NCBI RefSeq assembly: GCF_033153115.1
Contig: NW_026889803.1
Coordinates: 2,108,001 to 2,172,000, forward strand
Reading direction: 5' to 3'
From: Saccostrea echinata
Taxonomy: Eukaryota
DNA length: 64,000 nt
A program made the translations under genes and the position numbers. Shown here in pieces: positions 51,221-54,300 of this stretch (its first letter is position 1; each line of letters starts with the position of its first letter). A model generated the notes under the pieces. It was not told where the DNA came from, searched no databases, and saw only the letters and a program-made list of their open reading frames with translations.

Positions 51221-51270
51221 GTCACGTGGATGTCATGTGATCGCCCTGTGAACAATCAAAATGGACGCCC
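51221..51270 (+). promoter_or_regulatory. Tandem E-boxes (CLEAR/M-box-like) and a YY1-like motif upstream of the GLUT gene
   Basis: GTCACGTGG 51221-51229, GTCATGTGATC 51232-51242, CAAAATGGACGCC ~51257. All lie 80-130 bp before the ATG. Confidence 0.55.
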
Positions 51271-51350
51271 ATGATAGAAAATGGGACTAAAATCTGTAAT
51301 CGGGATTTCCCCCTTAAATATATATCTGAATTTCTAAATTAACTCAAAAA

Positions 51351-54300
51351 ATGGAAAGACGTCCACTGCTTGGTGCCAGTGATGACGACAACTGTTCTGA
51401 TGACCACGAGGATAGCGTTGAGAAGAATTTAACATTGTCTGAAAAAGAAATTGATGCAATTGTCACTGCAACAACAAAACAGGTTTAGCACTTAACAAAG
51501 TTAGTCTGAACTTATCAAAAATACGCCATATATGACTTTAAACTTTTGAGAAATTAGAGCAGAACAATTTTTCTTTCCCATGGTATGGGTATTTTACCAC
51601 CAGAAGAGGATTAAGCCACCATTTGGTGGGCTGTGTCGAACCTGGAAATTCCTCCCCGACTCTAACCCATGGCCATGCTTTTATATGTTGACATGTCAAA
51701 ATATGAAAGCAGGGGTTATAGTCAGAGGAATTTAGGAATAATGTTACCTGTAACTTCAACAAGATTCTTTTCTTGTCTAGACTTAGTATGACCTCATTAT
51801 GTTCTTGTAATTGGACTAGAGTTAATTCAGAAATGCAGAGAGGGTCTTATACACCCCTTAAATGTTGAGTTGTATGGAATTTTAATGGTAAAGAAGCATT
51901 AAAATGATTCTGTACCTATAAAAAATTAGCTTATTTCTTTCAATACACAGTATATGTACCAATGTACCAGTTTGTAAGTAAACTTTTTTCCAGAATTTTA
52001 CAAAGAGTCTTGCCTTATCCATAGCAGCATGTGTGTGTGGATCTTCTTTTATGTTGGGCTACAACACAGGAGTAGTCAATACCCCAGCAGCTGTAAGTTA
52101 ACAATTTGTAGTATTGTAGTGCATTATTGCTAATAACTATGGCTGTTGAAAGACTGTAGAGGTGGTTTTAGATTACTCTTCCATTGATATTATGATTTAC
52201 TAACAGTTTCAAATTAGAAATCTTTTACCATTCTTTTGATTTAGATGTCAAAGTAGAACTGTATATCTCTTCCATTTGATGTAGGTATTAAAAGATTTCT
52301 ACAATGCAAGTTACCACAAGAGGTATGGAAATGATAATATAACAAGTACAACTGAATTCAACTTGACCTCCACTGGGTACCTCTCTCCCACAGAACTCTC
52401 AATCCTTTGGGCAACTACTGTGTCTATATTTGCATTTGGAGGGATGATTGGGGGGCTCAGTGCGGGATATTGGTGTAATAAGTATGGAAGGTATAATTTT
52501 TTTTTTTAATCCAATTAATGAAAATATTTTGGTGCTTTAAAGTTTAATAAGTATCTTTGCAGCTTTGCAAAAATCTACTTACCAGTAAAAATGTAAGAAC
52601 TTCTTATATTAATATTTCAGGAAAGGGGCACTGTTGAGAAACAATCTTCTTCACTTGGTGGCTGCAGGGCTGATGTTCTCATTTCGTTATGTTTACTCCT
52701 TTGAAATGATGATAGCTGGTCGTTTATTGGTTGGCATATGTGCAGGTATTAGATTGTTTGTGTCTTGACAAAATTAAATCAAATCAAGATTGATTTGAGT
52801 AGAATAAGATTTTTTACTTTTTTTCATGTTGTTTGTATGAGCTTTTAGAATTGAGTTTAAGAAATCCACTTTAATAATGTGTAAATGTTTTGTTTTTTTT
52901 TTCCAAAAGTTCTATTAGAAGAATAACTTAAATACCTACAACCTATGATGATTTATTTCAATATTCTTTCATATTTAGTTGTTACAACTTCATTGATGAT
53001 CATTGCAATAACATTTAAAACAAATTTTAAAACTTTATGAAAAATATTTTCAGGGATAAATTCTGGAGCAGCCCCTTTATACCTTTCAGAGATAGCCCCC
53101 ACTTCTCTGAGGGGGTTTGCTGGGGTCTTCAATCAGCTGGCTATAACCTCAGGGGTACTGGTTGCTCAGATTCTGGGGCTGGATGTTGTCCTGGGGACCA
53201 AAGATCTATTTCATTATGTCTTAGGTAATTATTAGAAGTTGCTCTAGTGCAATTTACATGCACTGTTAAACTTTGATATTGGACGAATCTATAAAGATGA
53301 CTAGAAGATGTATGTTTGAAGCATTATTTCGAAGTAGGTTAATTGGGTAGATTATTTAAGATAATTTATACAGCAATGTATCAATCTTACCAAAGGTGCC
53401 ACAGTCATTCCAGTAGCCGTAATGTTGTGCTTGTTACCATGGTGCCCAGAATCTCCTCGCTTCCTGATGCTTGTGATGAAAGATGAAGATGAAGCTGAAA
53501 AAGGTTTACATAGTGTAAAATGAATAGTTAATATTGTGATTTATTAAGTTAGCCATTTCATCACTGAAATAAGAGACTACTTCAGAACTATGTATATACG
53601 TGCATTAACAATTCTGATGCTTTTTTTTGTTATGCTCTCACCTGACTGAAAGCAAGTTTGTGGTTATATAGACAATATAAATCTTTATTGTAACTACAGC
53701 TCTGATCTGGCTGAGAGCCACAGATGATGTTGGGGAGGAGTTAGAAGAGATGAGAAGTGAAGGAGAGAAACAAAAAAGAATGCCAAAGGTTAGAATGCAA
53801 TAACTAATCATAGAAATTCCATTAATTTTATAATGTAGTAGATGTATTAGTGGATGACATTGAGTCCATTAATGATATATTTGTATCACTTTTATCATTA
53901 GTGGCTAAATTTTTACTTGCATTGTGTTAGACTTAACTATCAGATGATATTGTTATCCAATAATGATGTAATTCATGTCATTAGCAAAATCTTATAGCAG
54001 ACACTGTATTTTTTAGTGGATAACATGGTGCTGGATAATAATTGATGAATGCATATAATCCACTAATGATAAATTATAGTATTAGTGGGTTTTTTTTAAA
54101 TATTTGGTTAATAGCGGTTACTACAAATGTGGTAGTGTGTTATTAATGGCTTCCTACTAGCTTGGGTTGGTGGGTTAACCCTTTAGCTCAATCAGTAGAG
54201 CACTGAACTGGCATGCCAAAGGTCTGGGGTTCAATCCCAAGCAGAGGCACATACATGACTCTGTTACATTTGGCCAACGTTGGGACCCGGTTTTCTCTGG

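Follow-up and report, generated by a model that had tools for sequence, protein, structure and literature searches.

A GLUT1-like transporter gene of the oyster Saccostrea echinata with adaptor-type sorting motifs on both tails: a candidate endolysosomal hexose uniporter of molluscs

The window analysed here, a stretch of 64,000 nucleotides from the oyster Saccostrea echinata (G000:C54:2108001-2172000), contains a GLUT1-like sugar transporter gene of 12 exons that encodes 559 amino acids in an intact open reading frame (ORF). Coding exons 1-11 occupy 51351-63755 and are all joined by GT-AG introns in a single open frame, with exon 12 just past the window end. The encoded protein carries an N-terminal dileucine motif of the [DE]xxxL[LI] type and a C-terminal tyrosine motif of the YxxPhi type, and the gene is preceded by two adjacent E-boxes. 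The features of the gene are as follows, with the evidence for each in brackets (TM, transmembrane helix; UTR, untranslated region).

51221-51229, + strand: E-box 1, GTCACGTGG, GT-CACGTG-G with core 51223-51228 and a 5' T flank only (sequence)
51232-51242, + strand: E-box 2, GTCATGTGATC, M-box type, GT-CATGTG-AT with core 51234-51239 and both T/A flanks (sequence)
51269-51350, + strand: 5' UTR (RNA-type contigs, reaching 5' as far as 51269, 27 bp past E-box 2)
51351-51482, + strand: coding exon 1, 44-residue cytosolic N-terminal tail (sequence, RNA contigs; modelled as disordered in orthologue P0006)
51354-51371, + strand: [DE]xxxL[LI] motif ERRPLL, residues 2-7 (sequence, clade alignment)
51994-52092, + strand: exon 2, TM1 (sequence, RNA contigs)
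52285-52490, + strand: exon 3, loop 1 then TM2 (sequence, RNA contigs, alignment)
52621-52745, + strand: exon 4 (sequence, RNA contigs)
53054-53224, + strand: exon 5 (sequence, RNA contigs)
53396-53503, + strand: exon 6 (sequence, RNA contigs)
53700-53788, + strand: exon 7 (sequence, RNA contigs)
55155-55253, + strand: exon 8 (sequence, RNA contigs)
55957-56172, + strand: exon 9 (sequence, RNA contigs)
56374-56452, + strand: exon 10 (sequence, RNA contigs)
63628-63755, + strand: exon 11 (sequence; agrees with RefSeq model P0012)
63756-64000, + strand: start of intron 11, which continues beyond the window to exon 12
L001 1097-1324, + strand, outside the window: exon 12, with TM12, the C-terminal tail and the stop codon (sequence)
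L001 1283-1294, + strand, in exon 12: YxxPhi motif YTRL, residues 547-550 (DYTRL, 546-550; sequence, clade alignment)

The gene model is identical to the RefSeq protein of this species (P0012) across the first 556 residues, and introns 1-9 are spanned, with GT..AG ends, by RNA-type contigs from two studies, which we treat as transcripts because spliced joints are seen in them, no run being catalogued as RNA. The exon 1-exon 2 joint, on which a preliminary description of this locus had relied, was present across a GT..AG intron in 3/4 runs (X1, X2 and X3) of the first contig search and in 4/4 runs of the second, a related species among them. Translation starts at the ATG at 51351, and the RNA-covered 5' UTR holds two upstream ORFs (51271-51342, 23 aa; 51281-51337, 18 aa), both ending shortly upstream of the main ATG, the second with a strong start context. 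The protein matches the sugar porter family TIGR00879 at 386-390 bits (curated cut-off 237.8), and the model of the Magallana orthologue P0006 (predicted local distance difference test score, pLDDT, 88.6) has the expected 12-TM helix pattern of the MFS.

Codons 2-7 read ERRPLL, so that the strict N-terminal motif is present as had been described, and it extends far beyond this species. It occurs in 33/35 complete N-terminal tails of a molluscan clade, here termed clade B ('GLUT-B'), where shuffles give 2.25; a proline precedes the leucines (ExxPL[LI]) in 24 of the 33 motif-bearing tails, and in 30/33 proteins the motif starts at most six residues from the initial methionine, while the remaining tail aligns poorly and diverges. 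The paralogous clade A ('GLUT-A') has the motif in 0/25 complete tails; its representative in the same genome, a second GLUT1-like gene on C5, has its own first exon without a dileucine motif, and this contrast is seen in each group of molluscs for which both copies were sampled. Clade B, as used here, comprises 37 proteins (six oyster sequences together with P0045-P0069, P0071-73, P0075, P0076 and P0144) from oysters, pearl oyster, mussels, scallops, clams, unionids, limpets, abalone, caenogastropods and heterobranchs, and leaves aside oyster rows that are redundant or incomplete (P0003-5, P0008, P0009, P0011, P0044), N-terminally partial molluscan proteins (P0079, P0080) as well as three tandem models from non-molluscs. 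Membership was assigned by rank and confirmed on the tree for 19 of the 37 proteins, and for 8 of the 27 molluscan or unnamed proteins of clade A. What the preliminary description had treated as a trait of a bivalve is real in the oyster, but its spread is mollusc-wide, perhaps lophotrochozoan. The acidic patch noted behind the motif is likewise present here (seven Asp/Glu in 15 residues), but at least four such residues are found in only 11/33 clade-B proteins, and we rejected the patch as a general sorting sign.

The second motif, YTRL, is encoded by the last exon, outside the window, and is additional to the three signs of lysosomal function on which the preliminary description had drawn. 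YxxPhi motifs, mostly of the form Y-x-R/S-L, are present in 28/36 clade-B C-terminal tails (7.2 in shuffles) and in 2/26 clade-A tails (4.0 in shuffles), and the C-terminal tail of the annelid Owenia carries GYSRL. The P0006 model shows coil at residues 1-38 and again at the YTRL stretch, pLDDT being ~50 across residues 1-30 and 531-547; such low-confidence coil is what would be expected of free sorting signals. A further dileucine-like sequence, EEISLL (residues 520-525), was set aside, lying in the C-terminal helix of the model and being patchy outside oysters. YxxPhi motifs are reported to be bound by the mu subunits of adaptor protein (AP) complexes and [DE]xxxL[LI] motifs by their sigma hemicomplexes (PMC2730553).

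Taken together, the conservation of the dileucine motif, the contrast between paralogues and the YxxPhi motif make intracellular (endosomal or lysosomal) sorting likely. We favour the reading that the gene encodes an AP-sorted endolysosomal hexose uniporter, i.e. a GLUT8-like way of working on a GLUT1-like frame, and assign this a rough probability of 0.58. The dileucine motif would be read by the sigma hemicomplexes of AP-1/2/3 and YTRL by mu subunits, with the two signals removing the protein from the surface and placing it in late endosomes and lysosomes at steady state, as for GLUT8; sugar set free from food, glycogen or glycoconjugates by digestion in the lysosome would then pass to the cytosol down its gradient, and the GLUT-A paralogue would serve the plasma membrane. 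The GLUT8 motif is reported to be transplantable and bound by AP1/AP2, its LL>AA mutant moving to the surface (PMC2730553). The earlier proposal of a lysosomal sugar exporter is retained as regards endosomal/lysosomal sorting, and loses two of its supports: the glycans are lineage-specific, and so is the acidic patch.

The same pair of motifs would also serve the main rival reading, which we consider unlikely: a GLUT4-like store, kept in vesicles of the trans-Golgi network (TGN) and recycling system and released by insulin-like peptides or energy stress for uptake at the surface, e.g. in glycogen-storing cells. The YxRL form resembles TGN and recycling signals, that of TGN38 being YQRL and that of the transferrin receptor YTRF. 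GLUT4, a class I transporter that likewise bears an aromatic signal on one tail and a dileucine signal on the other, is held by an N-terminal FQQI together with a dileucine and an acidic cluster at the C-terminus (PMC7462842), of which the oyster arrangement is the mirror image; regulated translocation is known for GLUT4. This reversed order also counts against such a store, since the dileucine of GLUT4 is C-terminal whereas ExxPLL at the N-terminus follows GLUT8.

Quite unlikely, in our estimate, is a plasma-membrane transporter whose motifs provide fast endocytic turnover or basolateral polarity in the epithelium of gut or gill instead of residence in an organelle, with the E-boxes as housekeeping sites for USF. 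AP adaptors act in endocytosis and basolateral sorting too, and a motif-free isoform (P0015) is annotated in Magallana; however, a separate motif-free class I-like gene is available in this genome for the surface role, and the one such motif of GLUT8 is reported to leave no detectable surface pool (PMC2730553), whereas two signals are present here. No exon resembling the alternative start of P0015 was found in the window by a weak search; if that N-terminus is real, it would provide a first-exon switch between internal and surface forms.

The class of the transporter was examined by structure matching, residue comparison and phylogeny. The best match to a solved structure is GLUT1 (443 bits), followed by GLUT4 (417) and GLUT3 (410) and then by class II with GLUT5 (397), GLUT7 (342) and GLUT9 (316), and language-model look-alikes mix GLUT11b, GLUT4, GLUT9 and GLUT2, all at 0.99. 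Two features that we take to mark class I, a long loop 1 with an N-glycan at the GLUT1 N45 position and a Trp after the GPxxIP of TM10, are found as N84, which aligns with the GLUT1 glycan position, and W446 (Trp in 35/37 clade-B proteins, with two gaps). Two further class I features are not seen: in TM7 clade B reads QLT where QLS would be expected, and at the GLUT1 E380 position it has Ala in place of Glu. This Ala is found in GLUT-A and Drosophila Glut1 too, and 'vertebrate-style class I' is therefore too narrow a label. Class III is presumably marked by a short loop 1 without a glycan, whereas the oyster loop has 43 residues and three sequons. PMC7462842 words the glycan positions of classes II and III differently; it gives an N-terminal dileucine targeting motif as a class III feature, and this the oyster protein does possess.

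A careful tree (50 of 70 rows, LG+C20) supported molluscan clade B at 100/99, clade B with Owenia and two nemerteans at 98/95, GLUT-A with Drosophila Glut1 at 100/92 and all these protostome rows together at 99/94; their union with vertebrate GLUT1/3 received only 85/53. The rows included none named GLUT2 or vertebrate GLUT4, no vertebrate GLUT6/8 and two Tret1-like outgroup rows. In the best tree clade B is split from the Tret1-like gene of this genome at 100/99, and approximately unbiased (AU) tests, run on the quick tree of all 70 rows, rejected neither a position of clade B beside class II (p 0.205) nor one as sister to the Tret1-like outgroup (p 0.21), which is a rooting question. The earlier assignment to class I accordingly holds in the weaker form that the gene is class I-like and not class III, with the deep order weakly supported.

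As regards the origin of the motif, five changes are required on the quick tree, and an N-terminal ExxxLL is also present in two choanoflagellates, Syssomonas and a fish GLUT11b (P0206, P0208, P0219, P0254/P0303) and in one unnamed row. Gain near the base of the molluscs would be simplest, because the nearest arthropod rows of the tree and Lineus lack the motif, and 'independently' in the preliminary description is to be understood as this parsimonious reading; the motif may also have been retained from an old state, since choanoflagellate and Syssomonas relatives carry it. Two other related loci were observed in the genome: a third GLUT-like gene (G000:C54 ~53,949,600-53,954,800; L019), which groups with class II-like rows (92/91), and an intronless Tret1/GLUT8-like ORF on the minus strand (L004 3278-4676; G000:C1), to which a cluster on C29 is similar. 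No N-terminal [DE]xxxL[LI] was found within this ORF, for which an upstream exon is possible.

Transport function was considered from the residues of the sugar site. In the GLUT1 numbering that we assume, Q161, Q282, Q283, N288, N317, W388, N411 and N415 are kept in 35-37 of the 37 clade-B proteins, and Asn occupies, in 36/37, the TM1 position that we take to be the Asp site of proton-coupled relatives; a uniporter is therefore predicted, in which hexose exit would be passive and without proton coupling. A different organelle or substrate (Golgi/TGN, or pigment or secretory granules as lysosome-related organelles; N-acetylglucosamine, galactose, mannose or dehydroascorbate) is very unlikely in our view. 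Specificity may differ with the Ala at E380 and the QLT of TM7, GLUT12 is reported to use a similar motif for Golgi-associated vesicles (PMC7462842) and bivalve Mitf to drive melanin synthesis as well (PMC8173187); against this, the remaining sugar-site residues match GLUT1, and the E380 replacement, being common to paralogue A and Drosophila Glut1, is no mark of the clade.

The extended loop 1 with three sequons that had been described is located in exon 3 (NAS/N84 at 52303, NIT/N95 at 52336 and NLT/N103 at 52360) and, at 43 aligned residues, is 15 longer than that of zebrafish GLUT1a (28). Its proposed meaning as a general lysosomal sign does not hold: 27/37 clade-B proteins have a loop of GLUT1 length (28 residues) and 24/37 a single sequon, and within clade B a longer loop is seen only in oysters, Pinctada, Mercenaria and two unnamed rows. 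Each of the six oyster sequences carries 2-4 sequons in this loop, but the two extra sequons are within chance for a loop rich in N/S/T (P ~0.2 by shuffling), and across nine loops such shuffles gave P 0.03-0.55, mostly not beyond composition. The glycans were thus rejected as a lysosomal sign, and the long multi-sequon loop is mainly an oyster trait, whose sequons may be a local add-on.

The two adjacent E-boxes reported ~110-130 bp upstream of the ATG are found at -130 to -109, with cores 5 bp apart. No second pair of this kind occurs in the window (expected 0.02; 2/100 shuffles), and the 221 bp surrounding the two boxes match the genome only at themselves, hence are no repeat. RNA contigs start 27-46 bp downstream of box 2, contig ends not marking the start of transcription. 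E-boxes of this kind are also read by USF-type factors; GTCACGTGG fits sites of the USF type, and single GTCACGTG boxes occur four times in the window, both of which would suit the plasma-membrane alternative. MITF is reported to prefer a CACGTG/CATGTG core with a 5' T and/or a 3' A (PMC6672050), and in the oyster pair the 5' T is found in both boxes, the 3' A in box 2 only. As in elements of the CLEAR/M-box type and in the carbohydrate response element (ChoRE) read by ChREBP or Mondo with Mlx, two T-flanked E-boxes lie just upstream of the RNA-covered region with cores 5 bp apart; unlike the CLEAR/M-box consensus, box 1 lacks a 3' A. The defining ChoRE spacing is given as two E-box-like motifs exactly 5 bp apart (PMC1761440), which is the spacing of cores 51223-51228 and 51234-51239. 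A Mondo/Mlx ChoRE fits this spacing equally and would suit a sugar transporter as well. The GLUT4-like store would read the boxes in this way, one perfect CACGTG with this spacing resembling the S14 ChoRE (PMC1761440), whereas the 5' T on both boxes is reported to favour MITF over Myc-type factors (PMC6672050) and the 10-mer of box 2 recurs in this genome 23 bp before the ATG of the V-ATPase F gene.

This recurrence has a wider context, since all V-ATPase subunits are reported to be driven by MITF in fly and mammals (PMC6672050), and oysters to have one MiT/TFE orthologue, placed in a phagocyte module (PMC13186322). TCAYGTGA lies less than 200 bp from the ATG in 4/6 V-ATPase genes of this genome (G at -33, F at -23, D at -42 and c at -113), with none within 200 bp for d and E, against a background of 0.033 per 200 bp and 0/8 controls whose ATG had been located (five genes for proteasome alpha subunits and three for Sm/LSm proteins); three of these controls seem to have a 5'-UTR intron, and leaving them out gives 0/5. 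The count omits subunit c'' (apparent 5'-UTR intron) and a second V1E copy (first exon not covered), and the controls omit PSMA1, PSMA4, LSM2, LSM4, SmD1 and other Sm/LSm loci, for which the ATG was not located. Support from this comparison for MiT/TFE control is modest, and we see an even chance that the E-box pair ties transcription of the transporter to the oyster's single MiT/TFE factor, as for V-ATPase genes. The GLUT-A gene showed no such boxes in 3 kb, an absence made uninformative by an apparent 5'-UTR intron, and a scan of metagenome contigs for orthologous promoters gave 66 chance matches, of which 0/66 continue like exon 1. The genome-wide count of E-box pairs (224, versus 5 for the reversed pattern) was rejected as evidence because about half of 100 listed places (48) share one spacer and so represent a dispersed repeat. 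Repeat families of this kind, spread over many contigs, carry the tandem pair and could seed or mimic MiT/USF sites.

Several observations weigh against the endolysosomal reading. The rows of clades A and B are kin, and their counts are not independent events; two complete clade-B proteins depart from the motif (P0063 has DTEPLV and P0073 none), the Magallana RefSeq isoform X2 (P0015) has an alternative N-terminus without it, and most clade-B loops are of GLUT1 length. The V-ATPase comparison is a small test (two-sided Fisher p 0.021 for 4/6 vs 0/7 and 0.061 vs 0/5) and cannot separate MiT/TFE from USF. Dileucine motifs are also reported to place GLUT12 in Golgi and plasma-membrane pools and GLUT4 in a store that insulin can release (PMC7462842, PMC6929180). 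A broader proposal, which we advance only tentatively and as a whole, is that in molluscs one GLUT1-like gene gave rise to two, an importer at the surface and an exporter dedicated to lysosomal hexose, the latter combining a GLUT8-type dileucine with a LAMP/TGN38-type tyrosine signal under the MiT/TFE lysosome programme, that the sugar from intracellular digestion in digestive cells and haemocytes is delivered by this route, and that the address may be one which phagotrophic choanoflagellates already used.

With the class III proteins GLUT8 (SLC2A8) and GLUT6 (SLC2A6) the oyster gene shares an N-terminal [DE]xxxL[LI] near the start of the sugar porter (PMC2730553, PMC6929180) and, as a prediction, AP-dependent intracellular retention, a likeness in working only, as it lies on another branch and has a long loop 1 with a GLUT1-type sequon and an extra conserved YxxPhi. 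With GLUT1 and GLUT3 (SLC2A1/3) it has in common the place of the loop-1 sequon, the Trp that follows GPxxIP and the residues of the sugar site, GLUT1 being also its best structure match; the oyster protein differs in its 44-residue dileucine tail and the Ala for E380, without one-to-one vertebrate orthology. The protostome class I-like group of the oyster gene also takes in Drosophila Glut1 along with molluscan GLUT-A (e.g. Onchidium GLUT-1, P0166), but GLUT-A lacks both motifs, save for the two YxxPhi tails, and has Met at the N317 position in 27/27.

Around the locus, an astacin metalloprotease gene with ShK domains lies on the same strand ~7 kb past the stop codon (L001 8391 to L002 8159). 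Transporter-astacin fusions with differing junctions account for seven database entries, which come from six oyster species (P0001, P0002, P0005, P0007, P0012, P0016, P0027); RNA-derived transporter proteins end at 546-547 aa, the protease is annotated alone as P0014, and the fusion is probably an annotation merge. Intron 10 contains a 5.7-kb element (56693-62380) with 492-nt inverted repeats (98%) at its ends and inner inverted arrays of a ~22-nt unit (~58980-59350 and 61190-61345), which looks like a DNA transposon, and intron 7 has two similar short repeats with a tRNA-like box near 54130-54520. ARAGORN placed a tRNA-Arg(TCT) at 11614-11709 of the window. V-ATPase subunit E is present in two copies (G000:C13 6.55 Mb and C50 1.71 Mb), either paralogues or haplotype duplicates.

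The identity of lysosomal sugar exporters is described as unsettled (PMC2730553, 2009; PMC6929180, 2019), with class III GLUTs and Spns1 as candidates. No account of clade B was found in the literature on molluscan or invertebrate GLUT sorting or phylogeny, subscription journals being mostly uncovered; whilst the GLUT8 mechanism is known, its GLUT1-like, mollusc paralogue-specific, two-signal form appears undescribed. For practical purposes, several oyster database models of the transporter are merged with the neighbouring protease, and the 'GLUT1/GLUT3-like' labels of molluscan expression studies cover two different things. Clade B offers, across bivalves and gastropods, a testable candidate exporter in animals with largely intracellular digestion, for which GLUT-A is a natural motif-free control in the same genomes.

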